Virus record (IMG/VR): IMGVR_UViG_2737471818_000007
Direction: 5' to 3' (one strand)
DNA: 47,226 nucleotides
DNA from: a virus
Taxonomy: Duplodnaviria; Heunggongvirae; Uroviricota; Caudoviricetes
Shown here: one piece after another, positions 1 through 46,682 of the stretch
Layout: each line of letters begins with the position of its first letter
How positions within the stretch are numbered: the first letter of the stretch is position 1
The notes under the pieces: model-generated
The model's database searches: none
The model's input: only the letters and a program-made list of their open reading frames with translations
Told to the model about the DNA's origin: nothing
Translations under genes and position numbers: made by a program

Positions 1-582
1 TTACTCTGCAGGTGAAGTCGGCCACTCAATATCAGGTGCAGTTGATGTATCAACACGGTTCAGCAATACCCGATACTTCTTCCAGGCTTCCAGCAACGAG
101 GTTTCTTCCTCCGTTGCAATTTCCAGATCTGCAGCATCCTGAAGTGGCGCAATATGCTCACTGGCTACCTGCATCAGGCTTTTTTTTGTTTCTTCCGCCT
201 CCCGGATCCGGAACAGTTTTTCTGCTTCCGTATCCTTCACCCAGGCTGTGCCGTTCCACTTCTGATATTCCCCTCCCGGCGATAACCAGGTAAAATTTTC
301 CGGTAACGGACCGAGTTCAGAAATAAATAACGCGTCGCCGGAAGCCACGTCATAGACGGTTTTACCCCGATGGTCTTCAACGAGATGCCACGATGCCTCA
401 TCACTGTTGAAAACAGCCACAAAGCCAGCCGGAATATCTGGCGGTGCAATATCGGTACTGTTTGCAGGCAGACCGGTATGAGGCGGAATATATGCGTCAC
501 CTTCACCAATAAATTCATTAGTTCCGGCCAGCAGATTATAAATTTTTATGGTCCGTGGTTGTTCACTCATTCTGAATGCCAT
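1..582 (-). CDS. tfa: tail fibre assembly protein (Tfa-like)
   Basis: 193-aa ORF with stop at 1-3; its ATG (580-582) overlaps the stf stop (TAATG); resembles lambda Tfa (recalled, not searched). Confidence 0.85.
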
Positions 583-27056: not shown

Positions 27057-28106
27057 TTAACCCGCCTGCTCCATTATTTCACCAACGGTCTGTTCAAAAC
27101 GTTCTTTTTCCAGTTCCACGCCAGTCGCCCTGCGTCCCAGTGACAGTGCCGCTTTTATTGTCGCCCCCGACCCCATAAAAAAATCGGCAACCAAATCACC
27201 GGGGCGACTGCTGGCCTCAATTATCTGCCGCAACATATCGGCTGGTTTTTCACAGGGATGTTTGCCCGGATAATACTGCACGGGCTTGTGCGTCCAGACA
27301 TCCGTATACGGAACGGCAACTGATACGGAAAAATAACGCCGCAGGGATTTGTACTCCTTCAGCAGGCTGGCATATTGCCGGTTCAGTTCACTGTATGTGC
27401 TGACCAGCTGGTGGTGTGGCTTTTCCAGTTCCCCGCGTTGATGTTTTTCTGCTGCAACACGCGCAAACAACGCCTGTAATTTCAGATAATCACCTTCGTT
27501 CGGCAACTGCCACTGACTGATACCAAACCAGTGCGAAGCCATGTTTTTCTTTCCGGTGGCTTCCGCTATCTGTTTTGACGTTATTCCCAGTGATTCACGC
27601 GCATCACGAAAGTAAGAAATCAGCGGGGCCATGACGTGCTGTTTTAGCTCGCTCCCCTTTGCCGCATAGCCGTCATTTTTGGGCCGGTATGGCCCCTGAT
27701 AATGTTCTGCAAACAGAATGCGTTCTGTTGCCGGGAAATACGCCCGCAGGCTTTCCTTGTTGCATCCGTTCCAGCGTCCGGACGGCTTCGCCCAGATAAT
27801 GTGGTTCAGCACATTAAAGCGCTCACGCATCATGATTTCGATATCAGATGCCAGGCGATGACCACAGAACAGGTAGAGACTTCCGGCAGGTTTCAGTACC
27901 CGCCAGAACTGCGCCAGACACTGTTCCAGCCATTTCAGGTAATCATCGTCGCCCTTCCACTGGTTATCCCAGCCCTCGGGCTTCACTTTAAAGTATGGCG
28001 GGTCTGTGACTATCAGATCGACTGAGTTTTCCGGTAAGGTCTGGATAAATTCCAGGCAATCAGCGTTGATTAACTCACAACTGGATATTTTTACAGTATT
28101 AACCAT
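27057..28106 (-). CDS. DNA methyltransferase, beta-class N6-adenine/N4-cytosine type
   Basis: 349-aa ORF with ATG at 28106; motif IV DPPY near the N-terminus (LIVTDPPYF) and motif I FxGxG near the C-terminus (DFFMGSGAT). Confidence 0.8.
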   Translation of the reverse strand: MVNTVKISSCELINADCLEFIQTLPENSVDLIVTDPPYFKVKPEGWDNQWKGDDDYLKWLEQCLAQFWRVLKPAGSLYLFCGHRLASDIEIMMRERFNVLNHIIWAKPSGRWNGCNKESLRAYFPATERILFAEHYQGPYRPKNDGYAAKGSELKQHVMAPLISYFRDARESLGITSKQIAEATGKKNMASHWFGISQWQLPNEGDYLKLQALFARVAAEKHQRGELEKPHHQLVSTYSELNRQYASLLKEYKSLRRYFSVSVAVPYTDVWTHKPVQYYPGKHPCEKPADMLRQIIEASSRPGDLVADFFMGSGATIKAALSLGRRATGVELEKERFEQTVGEIMEQAG

Positions 28107-28713: not shown

Positions 28714-30117
28714 ATGGCTCGTAAAGATTTCACTCAGCAAATAGACATTCCAATTCAAAATATCCTCCTCGATACTGAAAATGCCAGAATCCGCGCAGGT
28801 AGAGATCAAAACAACTGCATTTCAAGGATATTGCGTAAAGAAAACCAGATGCTTGTATTGATGGAGGATATTGCAGAAAACGGACTTACAACCATGCCCA
28901 TATTGGTTATGCCTCACTCAGAAGGTAAATGGGTAGTTAAAGATGGTAATAGACGAATAACAGCTTTAAAACTATTAAATAACCCAGATAGTTGCCCGGA
29001 ACCACATTTAATTCCGAAAATAAAAAAAATAAAAGAAAAATATCATGACAACATACCTACTACTGTTGACTGTTTATCAAGTGACAATTTTGAAGCAGTA
29101 TTTAAAGAGATAATAGCAAGGCATTCTGGAGCACGTAATGGTGCTGGTCAATATGACTGGTTTGCATATATGCGAACAATTTATCTATTAAATAATGGAC
29201 ATCCAACTGATTATAAAAGAGCTGGTCAATATATGTGTTGGGCTGAACAAGAAGGCATTGATGTAGATGATGATTTCCCAATCACTAGTGTAGCCAGATT
29301 CTTTACTAGAGATAATCTTCTATTGTTAGGATTTGAAGTGGAAAATGATAAATTGAAGCCAATACTCTCAAAAGAAAAAATAATAAAAATGGCCTCAAAA
29401 ATTAATAGCGACTTTTCTTCAAAAATAGTTGATGTTAACACCGTCTTTAATCCTAGCGATGCAAAGAAATATCTTTGCTCGGTAAGAAAATATGCAGGAA
29501 TAATAGATGATTTTGCTTACAATAGTGATGACACAGAACAAGAAAATAATAAAAAAGAAGAAACAAATAAATGTTCCTCTCCATCTGAAGTGGATAACAA
29601 TAATGCGCAATCAGATAGTAAGAGTGACGCACCTGTACTACTAAAAAAACACGCAGGTAGAGGAGGTACACCTAAAAAAATACCAGCAGAGCGAAATAAA
29701 ATTTTTGGTAGAGGAAAGCCTGGAATTACTATTCCTGAAAATGAGACTAAAATAAGAACTATAATCTCAGAACTTAGGCAATTAGATGTAAAAAAAACAA
29801 CTCTTGCAACTGCATTTCTTCTTCGGGCACTGCTGGAGTTAAGTGATAAAGAATATAGAACAATTAACAAGTTGCAAGATAAAAAAAGCTTAGCTAAAAA
29901 TATTGCTAATAGCGCAGATCATATGTTGAAAAATAATCTAATCACTGACTCAGAACACCATATAATATCAGCTTATACTCGCGGCGAGCAAGGAACTGTG
30001 CACATTGAAACTTTACAAAAATTAATTCACAGAGAGACACATCACCCAGATTATATCTCAATTAATGTTTTTTGGGACAATATAGGTTGTTTTGTTCGAG
30101 CTTGTTGGAAAGATTAA
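28714..30117 (+). CDS. ParB/Srx-fold (DGxRR motif) N-terminal domain protein, unknown function; candidate nuclease or defence protein
   Basis: 467-aa ORF with ATG at 28714; N-terminus has ParB-like motifs (ILLDTENARIR; GLTTMPILVMP; VVKDGNRRITALKLL); Lys-rich low-complexity linker; His-rich C-terminal domain; very AT-rich. Confidence 0.65.
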   Translation: MARKDFTQQIDIPIQNILLDTENARIRAGRDQNNCISRILRKENQMLVLMEDIAENGLTTMPILVMPHSEGKWVVKDGNRRITALKLLNNPDSCPEPHLIPKIKKIKEKYHDNIPTTVDCLSSDNFEAVFKEIIARHSGARNGAGQYDWFAYMRTIYLLNNGHPTDYKRAGQYMCWAEQEGIDVDDDFPITSVARFFTRDNLLLLGFEVENDKLKPILSKEKIIKMASKINSDFSSKIVDVNTVFNPSDAKKYLCSVRKYAGIIDDFAYNSDDTEQENNKKEETNKCSSPSEVDNNNAQSDSKSDAPVLLKKHAGRGGTPKKIPAERNKIFGRGKPGITIPENETKIRTIISELRQLDVKKTTLATAFLLRALLELSDKEYRTINKLQDKKSLAKNIANSADHMLKNNLITDSEHHIISAYTRGEQGTVHIETLQKLIHRETHHPDYISINVFWDNIGCFVRACWKD

Positions 30118-30163: not shown

Positions 30164-31018
30164 TCATTTCTTCTTCATAGAGGGAGTGCTATGAATATTT
30201 AAATTTTTATATACCATAAGTTCTGTAACTCTTGGCCTTGTCAAATGAGTTGAGTAATGTAAAGAAAACTCCACAATTTTTTCGTCTTTATATAACTTCC
30301 TGATTTCTTCACAATTATCATATGTAACAATTATCGGAGTGGAAATATCCTTAACCTTTTCAGAAATTAATTTATGATCATGAGGTTTATAATGATTTCT
30401 ATAAAGCTGGCTACCTTTTTCATAATATGGAGGATCAAGATAAATTAGAGATTTTTTTGGTAGTGTATTTTTTATACTACCAATCAACTCACAGGCATCC
30501 AAATTATAAAGATCAATAAATTTTTTCATTCCACCTATTTTTTTTACTCTTTCACATAGTTTCTTCTTATTATACCTAGCATCAATCTTATATTTACCAC
30601 TCTGTTCTTTTCCTCCTATAACCCCACCTGATAAGATTCCAGAACGATTGGTTCGATTGAGAAAAAACGTAGCAAAACCAATAGATAAAATATCATGTTT
30701 AGTATAATTGTTTATTACATCTTTTTGCTTATACCAATTATCCATTGTTACTTCTGTTTCATTTATCAATGAAATAAATTTATCATTCTCATTTAACACT
30801 GACCACCAAAATGAGTAAACAACAGGATCCAAATCATTAATAATGACATGATCTACATATCCATGCATTAGCAAATACAATGCAGCTCCTGCGCCGCCAG
30901 CATATGGCTCCACATAATACCCACCACTAATTCCGTTATACCTCAGCAGTTCTGATATCCAAGGCCCCATCCTCCCTTTTCCACCGGGATAACGTAATGG
31001 GGTAAAAAATGTAGTCAT
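30164..31018 (-). CDS. DNA adenine methyltransferase, D12 (Dam-like) class
   Basis: Track ORF 30164..31054 trimmed to the ATG at 31018 (MTTFFTPLRYPGGKGRM..); motifs YPGGK, VEPYAGGAG, FLNRTNRSG, YLDPPYY parallel E. coli Dam; AT-rich; convergent with the ParB-like gene. Confidence 0.8.
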   Translation of the reverse strand: MTTFFTPLRYPGGKGRMGPWISELLRYNGISGGYYVEPYAGGAGAALYLLMHGYVDHVIINDLDPVVYSFWWSVLNENDKFISLINETEVTMDNWYKQKDVINNYTKHDILSIGFATFFLNRTNRSGILSGGVIGGKEQSGKYKIDARYNKKKLCERVKKIGGMKKFIDLYNLDACELIGSIKNTLPKKSLIYLDPPYYEKGSQLYRNHYKPHDHKLISEKVKDISTPIIVTYDNCEEIRKLYKDEKIVEFSLHYSTHLTRPRVTELMVYKNLNIHSTPSMKKK

Positions 31019-31105
31019 GCTGAACCTCATACAAAACCAGGAAATTAAATGCATTTTACCCTAAATCACATCAATTCTAAATAACTAAATTAACAGTATT
31101 AAAAT

Positions 31106-31459
31106 TCAGTTATCTGAAAGTATAAATAGCATCCCATCAACGAACCCCAATGCTGTTTGTAGTTCTTTTCTGATTGTGCCATCTGAACACTTCCGCTTTT
31201 TTGCAATTGTACGGAGAGAAATCCCGATAACAAAGTGAGCAATGATCAGCTCATATTCTTCTGGTTTATATTTCCGCAACCGGGCCACACATCCATCAAT
31301 CATAATTCCTTCATCATCATCGCACTGGAGACGTGACATTTTACCGTGTGGTAGAAGCCCCTTGAAGCCTGCCGCTATCGACTGCCAATCAACACCACTA
31401 TTTTCTGCTGCAGCCCATGCCCCCCAGCGGTCTAAAACCTCATACATATCACGCCCCAT
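31106..31459 (-). CDS. Q: late-gene antiterminator Q (QuuD / phage 82 Q family)
   Basis: Track ORF trimmed to the ATG at 31459 preceded by AGGTG; ..LDRWGAWAA..SIAAGFKGL..CDDDEGIMIDGCVARL.. resembles DLP12 QuuD (recalled). Confidence 0.75.
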   Translation of the reverse strand: MGRDMYEVLDRWGAWAAAENSGVDWQSIAAGFKGLLPHGKMSRLQCDDDEGIMIDGCVARLRKYKPEEYELIIAHFVIGISLRTIAKKRKCSDGTIRKELQTALGFVDGMLFILSDN

Positions 31460-31820
31460 TACTAACACCTCTAATTTCGCAAATCTTCACGCCCAGCCGA
31501 CCACCAGGAACGGGCTGACCGCGCACAATATTAATTTCATCAAACTGCTCGTCGTCGATAAGCAGTCCCGCATGCGTCAGCGCATCCAGCGGTGCTTTCA
31601 GGATATTGTCCAGATCACGACGGCGCTTATCCGGTGGCTCTGCAATAATCTTTATCGCCAGCCTTCCGGACAGGTTTAATTTCAGCCGCTGCTGGCAAAC
31701 AATAAGCGCCACATCCCGGCGATAACGCTCACCGGCTTTTGATACAAAATATGTGCTGCCACGACGTCGCCAGTAGGTGTTCACCGTTGGCGGGTAAGGC
31801 AAAACAAACTCTATACGCAT
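31449..31820 (-). CDS. rusA: RusA Holliday-junction resolvase
   Basis: 123-aa ORF; PPTVNTYWRRRG..RRRDLDNILKAPLDALT.. matches RusA-family motifs. Confidence 0.85.
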   Translation of the reverse strand: MRIEFVLPYPPTVNTYWRRRGSTYFVSKAGERYRRDVALIVCQQRLKLNLSGRLAIKIIAEPPDKRRRDLDNILKAPLDALTHAGLLIDDEQFDEINIVRGQPVPGGRLGVKICEIRGVSNGA

Positions 31821-33682: not shown

Positions 33683-34168
33683 TTAGTTTTGCTGTTCTAT
33701 TTTAAGCTTGATAGTTTCATACAAAACAATAGTTGCGCCTGTTTTACATAATTCCCGACTGTCATACGCACGAGACCAATAACACAACCAATTTTCAAGC
33801 TCTTCTCGTGTATAAATTTTACAGGCCAGCCCCTCAGCCATCTCTACAACTTCATCGCCTGGCGCGGTTAATTCGTATCCATTTAACAATAAAAAAACCG
33901 CACCAGCCATCATTGCTGTGCGCTTGTTTGCATTGGCAAATGGATGATTCTGAATCAGACTTTCAATCAATACCGATGCCAGTACAAACATGTCGTTGGT
34001 TTGCTCATACCATCGAACCATACTGGGACGAGACTGAGAAGAACTTAAATTATCAACACTCAGCACACCAACAGGTTCATCTGGTGTTTGAAGCTCAATT
34101 AAAAGGCGATTGATTTCAGTAAGATCATCAACCGAGAGGTAGTGCACTCCTTCAACAATCTCAGCCAT
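33683..34168 (-). CDS. Fic/Doc-family toxin (Doc-like)
   Basis: Track ORF begins at TTG 34177, ATG at 34168; contains HPFANANKRTA matching the Doc motif HxFx(D/N)(A/G)NKR. Confidence 0.75.
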   Translation of the reverse strand: MAEIVEGVHYLSVDDLTEINRLLIELQTPDEPVGVLSVDNLSSSQSRPSMVRWYEQTNDMFVLASVLIESLIQNHPFANANKRTAMMAGAVFLLLNGYELTAPGDEVVEMAEGLACKIYTREELENWLCYWSRAYDSRELCKTGATIVLYETIKLKIEQQN

Positions 34169-34186
34169 AGAGCACAATACCCATCA

Positions 34187-34366
34187 TTACACTTTTGAAA
34201 GATCTTCCATTGCCTTCTCGTAACGAGAAAAACCGAAATCGAAAGCATTTTTCACCTGCTCACGATGAGTGCAATTTTCATCGATAGCCGGGCGCGGAGC
34301 TGCCACAACGCTTTTATCGCGAGGGGGAATAGTCAATCGCGGGTGTTTTTTTAGTGCGTAGCTCAT
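34187..34366 (-). CDS. putative antitoxin of the Doc-like toxin (59 aa, below the ORF-track cutoff)
   Basis: ORF MSYALKKHPRLTIPPRDKSVVAAPRPAIDENCTHREQVKNAFDFGFSRYEKAMEDLSKV ends 18 nt upstream of the toxin ATG; operon position of an antitoxin. Confidence 0.5.
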   Translation of the reverse strand: MSYALKKHPRLTIPPRDKSVVAAPRPAIDENCTHREQVKNAFDFGFSRYEKAMEDLSKV

Positions 34367-34484
34367 TGGTGTACCCTTACTTCTCCGTCCTGTTCTTTAA
34401 CAAAAATTAAGTCAATACAAAATTAGTCAGGCTAATGTTGTTAGCATAGCCTAATACCAATCGTATTCACAACCACAGTACGTG

Positions 34485-34510
34485 AAAAAACCCGCCGAAG
34501 CGGGTTAAGT
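34485..34510 (-). terminator. rho-independent terminator downstream of hok
   Basis: Second copy of AAAAAACCCGCCGAAGCGGGTT; on the minus strand the hairpin is followed by TTTTTT. Confidence 0.65.
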
Positions 34511-34576
34511 GCGGGTGCGTTGAGGATGCCTGACACATCAGAGGTGGCGAGGAATTTCTCCCTCGCCAGGTCACTC

Positions 34577-34732
34577 TTACTCCTCAGATTCGTAAGCTGT
34601 GAAGACAGCGACCTCCGTCTGGCCGGTTCGGATTCGTACCTCGCAGAGGTCTTTCCTCGTTACCAGTGCCGTCACTATGACGGTTAAACAGATGACGATC
34701 AGGACGATTAACATCGCCTTTTGCTGCTTCAT
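34577..34732 (-). CDS. hok: Hok/Gef-family type I toxin
   Basis: 51-aa ORF MKQQKAMLIVLIVICLTVIVTALVTRKDLCEVRIRTGQTEVAVFTAYESEE, classic Hok; below the ORF-track size cutoff. Confidence 0.85.
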   Translation of the reverse strand: MKQQKAMLIVLIVICLTVIVTALVTRKDLCEVRIRTGQTEVAVFTAYESEE

Positions 34733-34790
34733 AGCCTGCTTCTCCTTGACCTTTCGGTCCGTAAGAGGCTAACCTACATGTGTCTAGCAT
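34584..34790 (-). CDS. mok: Mok-like overlapping reading frame (translational coupling for hok)
   Basis: 68-aa ORF in another frame, starting upstream of hok and ending inside it, as in the R1 hok/mok/sok locus. Confidence 0.55.
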   Translation of the reverse strand: MLDTCRLASYGPKGQGEAGYEAAKGDVNRPDRHLFNRHSDGTGNEERPLRGTNPNRPDGGRCLHSLRI

Positions 34791-34986
34791 GAAATTGGCC
34801 TCAGATTAATGTTAAGCGTCTTGCAGGACGCGTAATGTTAACTAGGGCTTTTCTCTATCTGCCTTTGGTGTTCATGCCTGAGGCAGATAGCCTCAAGCAC
34901 CCGCAGCAATTCTACTTAAGTTAGATAAGCTTTTCTATGGTATTCTCTCAGCGTCCCGTAAATACAGTCTCGGCTCATCATTTTTA

Positions 34987-35250
34987 TCACAGGTGCGAGG
35001 AAAATATATAGCGCCCTCCATCAAGCATAACGAAATACATTTTCCATTCATCGCCATTCCTCAATTTAATACGAAGACTTTCCCCGCAAGTGTATTTATT
35101 AAACAACTGTTCCGATGTGCTAGTAAGAGGTATTTTTACCGTTATTACAACTACTGCCCCACCATTTAACTCTCGAAGTTCAGCATCCGCATCCACAAAA
35201 GATGAATAAATGTTATGATCTGGGTAATCAACAATTAACTGCATATTCAC
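34987..35250 (-). CDS. hypothetical protein
   Basis: 87-aa ORF; no family recognised. Confidence 0.4.
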   Translation of the reverse strand: MNMQLIVDYPDHNIYSSFVDADAELRELNGGAVVVITVKIPLTSTSEQLFNKYTCGESLRIKLRNGDEWKMYFVMLDGGRYIFSSHL

Positions 35251-38084: not shown

Positions 38085-38831
38085 TTACTTCACAACCCTT
38101 AAATGGCTGACATTTGAACGCCAGCTATCCCAGTTAAAATTCACCCAGCGACCACCGTTCATGGCCATGCGGTCCATCACGCGTTCGCCAAGCAGCGTAT
38201 TCATCGCCGCATGGTTCAGATTCGTCAGCATCCCGACGCTGTGCATCGAGGCCGTTCTGCGATCGAATATCTGGTTCAGTGTGACCTGTTCGTTACGCGT
38301 ATCCCGCTGCATACCGATTTCATCCAGGATAAGCAGGTCAACTTCACACAACCCCTGCAAAAATTTTTCGCCTGAGTTTTTGTTGTCGTAGTTGCCGTGC
38401 AACGCCAGCATCACATCCGCCACCGTCACAACAATCACGCTGCGACCTTTCGCCAGAAGATGGTTACCAATGGCTGCTGCCAGATGATTCTTTCCGGTAC
38501 CAGGCTTACCGCTGAACACAAAATTCGTGCACCCGCTCATCAGTTCGTCTGCAATGGACTTCGCCTGGCTGAGTGCATGACGCTGTCCGTCGTTCTGCAT
38601 CTGGTAATTCGCAAACGAACATTTCTGGTGCAACGGCTGAATACCGGAACGATTCAGGAATTTTTCCACCCGCAACTGGCGATTCTGGCGGTTAATCTCC
38701 TCGCTACGTTTTCGCTCTTCTGCAAGCTGCCACTCTCTCCACTCGTCCACTGTCCGGTACCGCGCGGTTACATGCTGCGGGGCCAGCTTACGGATACGTT
38801 CAAGAACACCACCTGCCGCAATATTTTTCAT
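38085..38831 (-). CDS. DnaC-like helicase loader (IstB-type AAA+ ATPase)
   Basis: 248-aa ORF with Walker [16 protein letters not shown] and Walker B LLILDEIG; lambda P position. Confidence 0.85.
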
Positions 38832-40602: not shown

Positions 40603-41010
40603 ATGGATACAAAAAATTTAACTATCGGCGAACGCATTAGGTATCGTCGGAAAAACCTCAAACACACCCAAAGGTCTCTTGCTAAAGCCCTGAAAATCTC
40701 CCATGTGTCTGTATCACAATGGGAACGGGATGATAGTGAACCTACAGGGAAGAACCTTTTTGCCCTCAGCAAAGTATTGCAATGCTCACCAACATGGATT
40801 CTATTTGGCGATGAAGACAAGCAACCAACACCACCTGTTGAGAAGCCAGTTGCCTTATCTCCCAAAGAACTAGAGCTCCTTGAGCTGTTTAATGCACTGC
40901 CAGAATCAGAACAGGATACCCAGCTCGCCGAAATGCGAGCTCGAGTAAAAAACTTCAATAAACTCTTTGAAGAATTACTAAAAGCCCGTCAGCGGACAAA
41001 TAAAAGATAA
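40603..41010 (+). CDS. dicA: DicA, HTH-XRE repressor (CI-like)
   Basis: 135-aa ORF MDTKNLTIGERIRYRRKNLKHTQRSLAKALKISHVSVSQWER.. matching Qin DicA (recalled). Confidence 0.9.
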   Translation: MDTKNLTIGERIRYRRKNLKHTQRSLAKALKISHVSVSQWERDDSEPTGKNLFALSKVLQCSPTWILFGDEDKQPTPPVEKPVALSPKELELLELFNALPESEQDTQLAEMRARVKNFNKLFEELLKARQRTNKR

Positions 41011-45325: not shown

Positions 45326-45595
45326 ATGAGCGAACAGTACCTGATAACGCTCGATGAGTGGAAACCCAAACGGTTCAGTCTCCCAATAACAAACACTACC
45401 CTGGTGAAATACGGAAAACTTGGATACATCGTACCAAGACCACAAAAAATTCGTGGACGTTGGCTGATAGATCGCCGGGCAGTATTTGTTGGACCTGGTG
45501 AAACGGGAATTGCGCCGGAAATTCATACTGGCGATGATGATGCACTGAAGGAGATTTTAACTCATGTCACCGAGGCCACGAAAAAACAGCACTGA
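45326..45595 (+). CDS. excisionase-like protein
   Basis: Track ORF 45317..45595 trimmed to MSEQYLITLDEWKPKRF..; small basic protein immediately upstream of and overlapping int. Confidence 0.6.
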   Translation: MSEQYLITLDEWKPKRFSLPITNTTLVKYGKLGYIVPRPQKIRGRWLIDRRAVFVGPGETGIAPEIHTGDDDALKEILTHVTEATKKQH

Positions 45596-46682
45596 CGTAG
45601 CCGGTCTTTACGAAAAGTTTGATCGCAGAACTGGCAGAGTTTACTACCAGTATAAAAACCCTGTGACTGGAAAATTTCACGGACTCGGAACAGACAAAGG
45701 CAAAGCTGAAAGAATCGCTTCCACAGCCAATCAGCGAATAGCTGCAGCAGAAGCCGAATATTTCATGCGCAAAATTGATGAAAGTCCATCAGCAACAAAA
45801 CGTCGGGGTATCAGATTAAAGGCATGGGTTGATCGATATCTGAAAATACAGGACACGCGACTGAAAAATGGAGATATTGCAGCTACAACTCACAAAGAAA
45901 AAACTCGAATGGCTGCATACCTGGTTTCCCGTCTGGGAAACCACCCATTGAAAGAACTGGAAGTAAGAGACTTTGCATTAATACTGGATGAGTGGCTGGA
46001 TAAAGACATGGTCAGCACAGCGAGAGTAAATCGTGGATTATGGGTTGATATTTATAAAGAAGCACAGCATGCAGGGGAAGTTCCTCCTGGATGGAATCCT
46101 CCGGAGGCTACCCGTAAACCGATCCCTAAAGTAACCAGAGCCAGACTCACCCTGGAAGACTGGCAAAAAATTTACAACGCAACGCCTGAAAAACACTTTA
46201 TCCGTAACGCAATGCTTCTTGCGATTGTTACTGGTCAGCGCCGTGATGACATTTGCCATATGCGTTTTTCAGATGTGTGGAACGAACACCTGCATATTAC
46301 CCAGGGAAAAACTGGAATGCGTCTGGCGTTACCGCTGACGCTACGCTGTGATGCCATTGGGATATCGCTAAAAGAAGTGATTGATGGATGCAGGGACAGA
46401 ATATTGAGTCCATACCTGATTCATAGTCGGCACCAAAAACAACCAAAACCAATGAGTAAAGACAACCTGAGCGATTACTTTGCCAAAGCGCGGGAGCTGG
46501 CTGGAATAATTCCACCAGCAGGAAAAACTCCGCCAACATTTCATGAACAACGTTCTCTATCAGAACGGCTGTACCGTGCACAGGGTATCGATACAAAAAC
46601 ATTACTGGGACATAAAGTCCAGGCAACCACCGATCGTTATAACGATACTCGTGGTCAGGAATGGGTTAAATTGGTTGTTTGA
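45564..46682 (+). CDS. int: tyrosine integrase (lambda Int family)
   Basis: 372-aa ORF with ATG at 45564; C-terminal catalytic region ..TLLGHKVQATTDRYNDTRGQ.. including the conserved tyrosine context. Confidence 0.9.
   Translation: MSPRPRKNSTDVAGLYEKFDRRTGRVYYQYKNPVTGKFHGLGTDKGKAERIASTANQRIAAAEAEYFMRKIDESPSATKRRGIRLKAWVDRYLKIQDTRLKNGDIAATTHKEKTRMAAYLVSRLGNHPLKELEVRDFALILDEWLDKDMVSTARVNRGLWVDIYKEAQHAGEVPPGWNPPEATRKPIPKVTRARLTLEDWQKIYNATPEKHFIRNAMLLAIVTGQRRDDICHMRFSDVWNEHLHITQGKTGMRLALPLTLRCDAIGISLKEVIDGCRDRILSPYLIHSRHQKQPKPMSKDNLSDYFAKARELAGIIPPAGKTPPTFHEQRSLSERLYRAQGIDTKTLLGHKVQATTDRYNDTRGQEWVKLVV

Follow-up and report, generated by a model that had tools for sequence, protein, structure and literature searches.

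Experiments on hokW-sokW, carried by Stx2 phage 933W and by Sakai prophage 5, provide direct functional information on a close prophage relative of the locus described here. HokW from Sakai prophage 5 is toxic and located in the inner membrane, and sokW RNA neutralizes it in a manner that depends partly on RNase III and Hfq (Takada et al. 2021, PMC8621323). Lysogens contain both RNAs; upon RecA-dependent induction the sokW RNA vanishes and HokW appears, and deletion of hokW-sokW halves phage release (PMC8621323). In a "pro-less" sokW construct, primer YO-421 replaces exactly the TAACCT box of the promoter, and antitoxin activity is lost (Takada et al., PMC8621323). The archetype of these systems is hok/sok (parB) of R1, which is plasmid-borne and has a proven role in post-segregational killing. 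For the R1 hok mRNA a set of elements has been defined that comprises tac, the metastable hairpin, ucb, dcb and fbi (Le Rhun et al. 2022, PMC9841398). The R1 toxin itself is distant, HokW being 44% identical to R1 Hok (PMC8621323). A recent survey places Hok in nearly 80% of Enterobacteriaceae genomes, with enrichment in prophages (bioRxiv 10.1101/2025.08.07.668861).

The DNA analyzed here (the window, 47,226 nucleotides) is a whole lambdoid, Rac-like prophage of E. coli, and the flank beyond its integrase gene is 99.8% identical to E. coli chromosomes. Judged by its sequence, the minus strand of the nin (early-right) region carries a hok/mok/sok type I toxin-antitoxin cassette that is canonical, looks intact and belongs to the HokD/HokW subgroup (Table 1). 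The preliminary description of this DNA had proposed a locus of this type, with a 51-aa Hok-family toxin ORF and an overlapping mok frame. Reading of the minus strand over 34440-34960 put both frames at exactly the coordinates given there, and the proposal is borne out by the Hok peptide, mok, an Rfam match to the leader, tac-fbi pairing, a target hairpin with a YUNR motif and a predicted sokW-like antisense RNA.

Table 1. Features of the hok/mok/sok cassette and of the surrounding prophage, with positions in the window
Feature	Position	Strand	Basis or remark
Integrase	45564-46682	+	
cI-like repressor	40603-41010	+	
DnaC-like replication gene	38085-38831	-	
hok/sok cassette	34485-34937	-	
RusA	31449-31820	-	
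Antiterminator Q	31106-31468	-	
hok promoter, TAGAAA-17 nt-TAGAAT	34909-34937	-	only sigma-70-like site that the scan found in 34300-35100
Full-length hok mRNA, ~418 nt (predicted)	34485-34902	-	5' end is Rfam model position 1, at 34902
tac (translational activator element), GGGUGCUUGAGG, at the mRNA 5' end	34891-34902	-	folds
Stable 5' hairpin, CUAUCUGCC...GGCAGAUAG	34855-34890	-	folds; 5' arm overlaps the partner of tac in the metastable hairpin
ucb (anti-SD box), AAAAGCCC	34845-34852	-	folds; closed form: masks SDmok; open form: paired with tac
Sok-target hairpin of the open form, loop CUAGACA with YUNR motif CUAG	34765-34802	-	local fold, -12.4 kcal/mol
SDmok, GAGGC	34798-34802	-	pairs with dcb
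mok AUG	34788-34790	-	within the target hairpin
dcb, GCCUC	34765-34769	-	pairs with SDmok
mok ORF, 68 codons	34584-34790	-	frame differs from that of hok; start 58 nt upstream of it, end 7 nt short of the hok stop codon
SDhok, AGGAG	34742-34746	-	direct sequence reading; 9 nt before the hok AUG
hok ORF, 51 aa, MKQQKAMLIVLIVICLTVIVTALVTRKDLCEVRIRTGQTEVAVFTAYESEE	34577-34732	-	Pfam PF01848, PHROG 251
UACG at the Tyr47 codon, candidate TadA A-to-I editing site (Tyr to Cys)	34591-34594	-	motif search
3'-UTR hairpin, GGCGAGGGAGAAAUUCCUCGCC	34546-34567	-	folds; directly after the hok stop codon, no U-run
fbi (fold-back inhibitory element), CCUCAACGCACCC, complementary to tac	34513-34525	-	duplex energy, conserved position
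Intrinsic terminator, CCCGC-UUCG-GCGGG then U6	34485-34504	-	sequence reading and folds; common to Rac442
sok promoter: -35 TTGACC (34746-34751), 18-nt spacer, -10 TAACCT (34770-34775)	34746-34775	+	direct sequence reading
Sok RNA, ~71 nt (predicted)	34782-34852	+	coordinates transferred by alignment from annotated sokW, AF125520

Members of the Hok/Gef family are peptides of ~50 aa with a hydrophobic helix at the N terminus and a conserved C-terminal portion. The hok peptide matched the Pfam profile HOK_GEF (PF01848) over 42 of 42 profile positions (81.2 bits, cut-off 22, E=3.9e-23) and PHROG 251, "MokW-like host killing", with E=3.5e-32. Its scores with the NCBIfam Hok HMMs were under the curated cut-offs (52.3 vs 73 bits for NF007279, the Hok subfamily, and 39 vs 89 bits for NF007290, the HokA equivalog); the name HokD derives from near-identity to RefSeq proteins annotated hokD, not from these HMMs. 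The mok frame has its own Shine-Dalgarno sequence, GAGG, 8 nt upstream of the ATG at 34790, and it overlaps nearly all of hok, such that translational coupling of the two frames is predicted. Folding around the UACG of the Tyr47 codon gave no convincing prediction of a tRNA-like hairpin; editing by TadA is reported for hokC, hokD and hokE in the Hok survey (bioRxiv 10.1101/2025.08.07.668861).

An Rfam scan at gathering thresholds, a check that the preliminary description had put forward, was run over the whole window and returned two matches in all, one of which was RF01794 "sok" on the strand of the hok mRNA (34730-34902, minus; 108.2 bits, gathering score 59, E=9.3e-24, covering the full model from position 1 to 157). 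We did not accept this match as a delineation of Sok, because it lies on the minus strand, ends at the hok AUG and models the hok leader; the plus-strand match of the same model reached only 16.7 bits. Since the model represents the leader and not the antisense RNA, Sok was delineated by homology to sokW. The base aligned to model position 1 was taken as the 5' end of the hok mRNA, and the -10 box of the hok promoter ends 7 nt before it; an alignment with 933W and Rac442 shows this box and the sequence downstream of it to be invariant. Just inside the leader, the stem-loop CTATCTGCC...GGCAGATAG noted earlier does exist, at 34890-34882 / 34863-34855, about 5 nt to the left of the 34860-34895 quoted for it.

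At the other end of the mRNA, the hairpin that directly follows the hok stop codon shows compensatory differences in the alignment with 933W and Rac442, and it was rejected as a terminator because no U-run comes after it. The true terminator lies 70-90 nt downstream of the stop codon, beyond fbi; the terminator hairpin of the preliminary description is thus present, but not right behind hok. A simple terminator pattern scan did not flag it, and the consensus promoter scan of 34300-35100 did not report the sok promoter, which was below its threshold. Because direct reading and folding show both the terminator and the sok promoter, we set these negative scans aside as a limit of their thresholds. 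Sub-threshold Rfam matches to isrK (26 vs 50 bits) and rsmX on the hok 3' UTR, which rest mainly on two hairpins plus the terminator, were also rejected.

In the minimum-free-energy fold of the full-length hok mRNA (-172.6 kcal/mol, z=-8.18), tac (34902-34891) is paired with fbi (34525-34513) and the mok start region is buried. The tac-fbi duplex has an energy of -21.5 kcal/mol, which was reached by 0 of 200 shuffled tac sequences. When the 3' end was trimmed to 34535 or further, the predicted fold switched to a tac/ucb stem together with the target hairpin formed by SDmok and dcb, leaving the CUAGACA loop exposed, and the first 40-50 nt, folded alone, formed a hairpin between tac and the bases directly following it, which corresponds to the metastable structure known from nascent hok mRNA. 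These folds are consistent with a reaction in which 3' processing would yield a truncated mRNA, and this RNA would refold so as to allow both translation and Sok binding. The Rfam consensus structure shows the same SDmok/dcb hairpin, and the CUAG of its loop is complementary to GUCUAG at the 5' end of Sok. Such a U-turn (YUNR) sequence in the target loop, opposite the Sok 5' tail, is a criterion that reportedly goes back to work of the Gerdes lab.

The antisense RNA had been expected on the plus strand around 34750-34830. The strand was right and the position was not: aligned to sokW, the predicted RNA spans ~34782-34852, about 30 nt farther to the right, and the earlier span includes the sok promoter but, of Sok itself, just the 5' half. 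The sok -10 box matches the consensus at 3 of 6 positions and is identical in the alignment with 933W. The predicted RNA has a 15-nt single-stranded 5' tail, GUCUAGCAUGAAAUU, whose sequence is the complement of the target loop and of the region around the mok start, followed by a long terminator hairpin and UUUU (fold -23.2 kcal/mol, z=-3.06), and it is fully complementary to positions 51-121 of the hok mRNA. The sequence features of Sok are homologous to those of the annotated and functionally tested sokW; for the window copy, Sok is a predicted transcript.

To place these elements in a wider context, we used a set of homologues obtained with a Hok-peptide scan of one genome per species, which returned 54 loci from Escherichia, Shigella, Kluyvera, Citrobacter, Pseudocitrobacter, Pantoea, Photorhabdus, Erwinia and other genera. 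A recognizable tac is present at 35 distinct loci, and at 33 of these its best complement lies 44-55 nt past the stop codon of hok; L017 and the frameshifted L051 depart from this. The two partners carry compensatory changes across genera (GGGUGC/GCACCC vs GGGCGC/GCGCCC, and GAGG/CCUC vs GAGA/UCUC). Within the leader, RNAalifold on 25 homologous sequences recovered three stems (tac/ucb, 5' hairpin and SDmok/dcb), each of them kept in all 25; SDmok/dcb is invariant throughout, and the stem of the 5' hairpin includes some compensatory changes. Individual elements are missing or damaged in several homologues: tac is absent from L006, L007, L030, L045 and L048, mok is absent from L007, L023, L024 and L027, and hok is frameshifted in L045 and L051.

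The cassette is already known in kind and nearly in sequence, as is evident from the hokW-sokW experiments, the Hok survey and the presence of similar DNA in 79 phage records and in 4726 of 5426 complete E. coli genomes (median 2 places per genome, annotated hokD in RefSeq). Its DNA is 92.8% identical, over 80% of the query, to hokW-mokW-sokW (Stx2 phages 933W / Sakai prophage 5, AF125520), which is also prophage-carried; 47 of 51 residues are identical between HokW and the window Hok, both of the 51-aa type, and the 933W locus has the same leader, tac, fbi, sok -10 box and Sok hairpin. The differences are a 1-nt deletion in 933W (GG-CAAGG vs GGTCAAGG in the window), which brings mokW into the hokW frame and also alters the sok -35 box and spacer, and the lack in 933W of the CCCGCUUCGGCGGG-U6 terminator sequence of the window. 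The genomic positions differ as well: hokW is at the right end of the 933W map, beyond the late genes, where circularization places it, across attP, behind int and the pL operon and in the same orientation, whereas the window cassette is in the nin region.

HokD-type peptides in E. coli and Shigella are 96% identical to the window Hok, and the common HokD peptide of the hokD (relF) loci in Rac/Qin-type E. coli prophages differs from it at 2 of 51 residues. Some HokD copies (e.g., L007) are without leader, tac and mok, whereas no regulatory element is missing from the window copy; the truncated kind presumably includes relBE-hokD of K-12. The hokC (gef)/sokC loci (L015-L022), with a peptide ~80% identical, have the same tac, ucb, SDmok and fbi as the window, but their leader is shorter (tac at -150 vs -170), their mok is in frame with hok, and they are chromosomal and outside prophages. 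With R1 hok/sok the window shares tac, fbi, ucb, dcb, mok coupling, the metastable 5' hairpin and the Sok tail and terminator hairpin; relative to R1, the window Sok hairpin has ~20 nt of additional sequence, which hokC-type leaders lack as well. A plasmid search for distant relatives returned mainly HokD-type copies ~88% identical and short fragments, and R1 hok/sok itself was not among them, which leaves the Rfam model and published work as the basis of the R1 comparison.

In the mechanism that we draw from the R1 and hokW paradigms, to which the window copy contributes the sequence elements described above, a weak constitutive promoter would make a stable hok mRNA of ~418 nt, with tac held in the metastable 5' hairpin during synthesis. 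The finished mRNA would be locked by pairing of its ends through tac and fbi, with ucb masking the mok Shine-Dalgarno sequence, and would permit neither translation nor Sok binding. Slow 3' trimming would remove fbi, whereupon tac would pair with ucb and the SDmok/dcb target hairpin would form. The open mRNA could then meet one of two fates: ribosomes would translate mok and, by coupling, hok, or the abundant, unstable 71-nt Sok would bind, its 5' tail docking on the YUNR loop and covering the mok start, and the duplex would be destroyed by RNase III. Should Sok synthesis stop, the accumulated mRNA would yield the 51-aa Hok, which would insert in the inner membrane and depolarize or kill the cell. 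For the window copy, Hok toxicity and its neutralization by Sok through RNase III-dependent decay are extrapolated from the homologue hokW-sokW (PMC8621323). [quoted passage not shown]

Taken jointly, the data are very probably best explained by a HokD/HokW-subgroup cassette in the nin region of the prophage that operates by an R1/hokW-type mechanism and has a role coupled to induction or loss. If instead the hok frame were a chance ORF beside unrelated hairpins, with no toxin-antitoxin locus present, Pfam, PHROG and Rfam E-values of 1e-23 to 1e-32 and DNA 93-97% identical to annotated hok/mok/sok loci would have to be coincidental; these results and the conservation of tac-fbi already refute that reading, for which we found no points and whose likelihood is practically nil. 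An intact-looking hok locus need not be active, and the cassette might be a silent or decaying relic that is unexpressed or non-killing and has no present function in the prophage. Literature summarized in the Hok survey holds that chromosomal hokA, hokB and hokC could not mediate post-segregational killing (bioRxiv 10.1101/2025.08.07.668861), several of the homologues that we retrieved are clearly degraded, and the sok promoter combines a weak -10 box with an 18-nt spacer. However, functional sokW is driven by the same -10 box, the same survey describes HokD-type peptides as toxic when expressed (bioRxiv 10.1101/2025.08.07.668861), and the window copy has no sign of decay: promoter, tac, ucb, SDmok, mok, SDhok, hok, fbi, terminator and the sok promoter and hairpin are all intact and in register. 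We consider a relic quite improbable; for the window copy, transcription, 3' processing, Sok abundance and Hok toxicity are predictions from the sequence.

A cassette of the same identity could also serve mainly in defense, by abortive infection of other phages, or purely in prophage stabilization, by post-segregational killing, rather than in helping lysis. R1 hok/sok lowered T4 plating (cited in PMC8621323), the annotation of 933W notes "prophage maintenance", and a Doc-family toxin module immediately downstream of the window cassette makes the region a small toxin island. On the other hand, the large survey describes no enrichment of hok near defense systems (bioRxiv 10.1101/2025.08.07.668861), and the one experiment done directly on a closely related prophage locus found a positive effect on the release of the phage's own progeny (PMC8621323). 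We think such a main role somewhat unlikely, and we retain the coupling of Hok release to Sok loss as the preferred reading. Lysis timing, prophage stabilization and phage exclusion are the alternatives in the general question of what hok/sok does in temperate phages.

The surroundings of the cassette suggest one way in which such coupling might be achieved. hok is co-directional with, and downstream of, early-right replication-RusA-Q transcription, an orientation which suggests that early transcription running through the cassette could shut down the convergent sok promoter when the prophage is induced. On a further, distinctly speculative and unlikely proposal, the cassette would be wired to induction by its position: antiterminated early transcription would read through hok in the sense direction, silence sok by transcriptional interference, produce a sense RNA without the native tac 5' end and release Hok at a set time before the holin acts. 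The gene orientations are observed in the window and in 933W, and the mechanism attached to them is pure conjecture. If true, it would explain the RecA-dependent disappearance of SokW, and the adjacent Doc module would become part of a timed "toxin island". The site between the replication genes and Q, beside the Doc module, is convenient for testing whether early transcription switches off Sok.

The value of the analysis is chiefly one of correct annotation: within a prophage it flags a small ORF that is probably toxic and a predicted antisense RNA that had no annotation, which is useful for cloning and deletion work and for reading RNA-seq signals in the region. Next to hok lies a 59-aa ORF which, because it had no Pfam, NCBIfam or PDB sequence match, can be called an antitoxin for Doc only as a guess. 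The block formed by hok, the 59-aa ORF and the Doc-family toxin is 97-98% identical in Rac-like E. coli prophages (e.g., those of strains K56-43-un and APEC O1), where it has replication genes on one side and Q-region genes on the other.

The hok/sok cassette does not stand alone in the window. Directly downstream of the hok terminator lie a gene for a Doc-family (Fic/DOC) toxin and, preceding it by 18 nt, a 59-aa ORF (see the table for coordinates). The toxin, whose start is probably at 34168 (-), matches TIGR01550 with 120.6 bits, contains the motif HPFANANKRT and has a PDB match (9vzc, E=6e-14). The 59-aa ORF matches PHROG 2208 and has no match in Pfam, NCBIfam or PDB. These two genes likely form a type II toxin-antitoxin module in which the 59-aa product is the putative antitoxin, and together with hok/sok they likely make up a two-module toxin island. 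The same arrangement of hok/sok, 59-aa ORF and Doc gene is present, at 97-98% identity, in Rac-like E. coli prophages. In the spacer between the modules, an inverted repeat (AGGCTA and TAGCCT separated by 12 nt) and a TTGACT box, both read by eye, may serve the putative antitoxin-Doc operon as its promoter and operator.

Coordinates of the features discussed
Feature	Position	Strand	Remark
IS009 (RF02111) match	41-239	-	
N6/N4 DNA methylase	27057-28106	-	
467-aa ORF	28714-30117	+	
Dam-type methyltransferase	30164-31054	-	adjoins Q (antiterminator gene)
59-aa ORF and Doc-family toxin gene	33683-34366	-	
59-aa ORF	34187-34366	-	
Spacer, hok terminator to 59-aa ORF	34367-34484	-	
hok 3' UTR	34485-34566	-	hairpin, fbi and terminator
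UACG in hok	34591-34594	-	motif used by TadA
mok start region compared	34740-34790	-	

We compared the mok start of the window with those of the homologous hok loci L001 (phage 933W), L002 and L004-L051. Two positions occur: mok begins 58 nt upstream of hok, out of frame with it, in the window, in the homologous Rac442 locus and in some Kluyvera loci, and 57 nt upstream, in frame, in 933W, hokC-type loci and Photorhabdus, such that the “Mok” of the in-frame cases is Hok with an N-terminal extension. The two configurations differ by a 1-nt indel (GGTCAAGG vs GG-CAAGG), whose site doubles as the -35 box of the sok promoter; a single indel therefore alters the mok frame and the geometry of the sok promoter together.

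Unlike the hok of the window, which is intact, several of its homologues show visible decay. Among the genome-contig loci, tac or the leader is absent from L006, L007, L030, L045 and L048, and hok is frameshifted in L045 and L051.

The hok 3' UTR gave a sub-threshold Rfam match to isrK, an sRNA of the Salmonella Gifsy-1 prophage (26.3 bits, gathering score 50; E of about 4e-4 to 2e-3). Carried mostly by the two hairpins, this similarity could be due to chance, or it could hint that isrK originated from a hok-type 3' end.

Within the hok coding sequence, the Tyr47 codon (UAC) is followed by G, creating the UACG motif. Tyr-to-Cys recoding by A-to-I editing has been described at the corresponding Tyr of hokC, hokD and hokE (bioRxiv 10.1101/2025.08.07.668861). 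Local folding predicted no clear tRNA-like hairpin around the motif in the window.

Elsewhere in the window, a 467-aa ORF lies on the strand opposite to its neighbouring genes, is flanked by the two methylase genes and has no match in Pfam; by placement, it is moron-like. A full-length Rfam match to IS009 (225 bits vs 117, E=3e-55) is located within or adjoining the tail-fibre end of the prophage.
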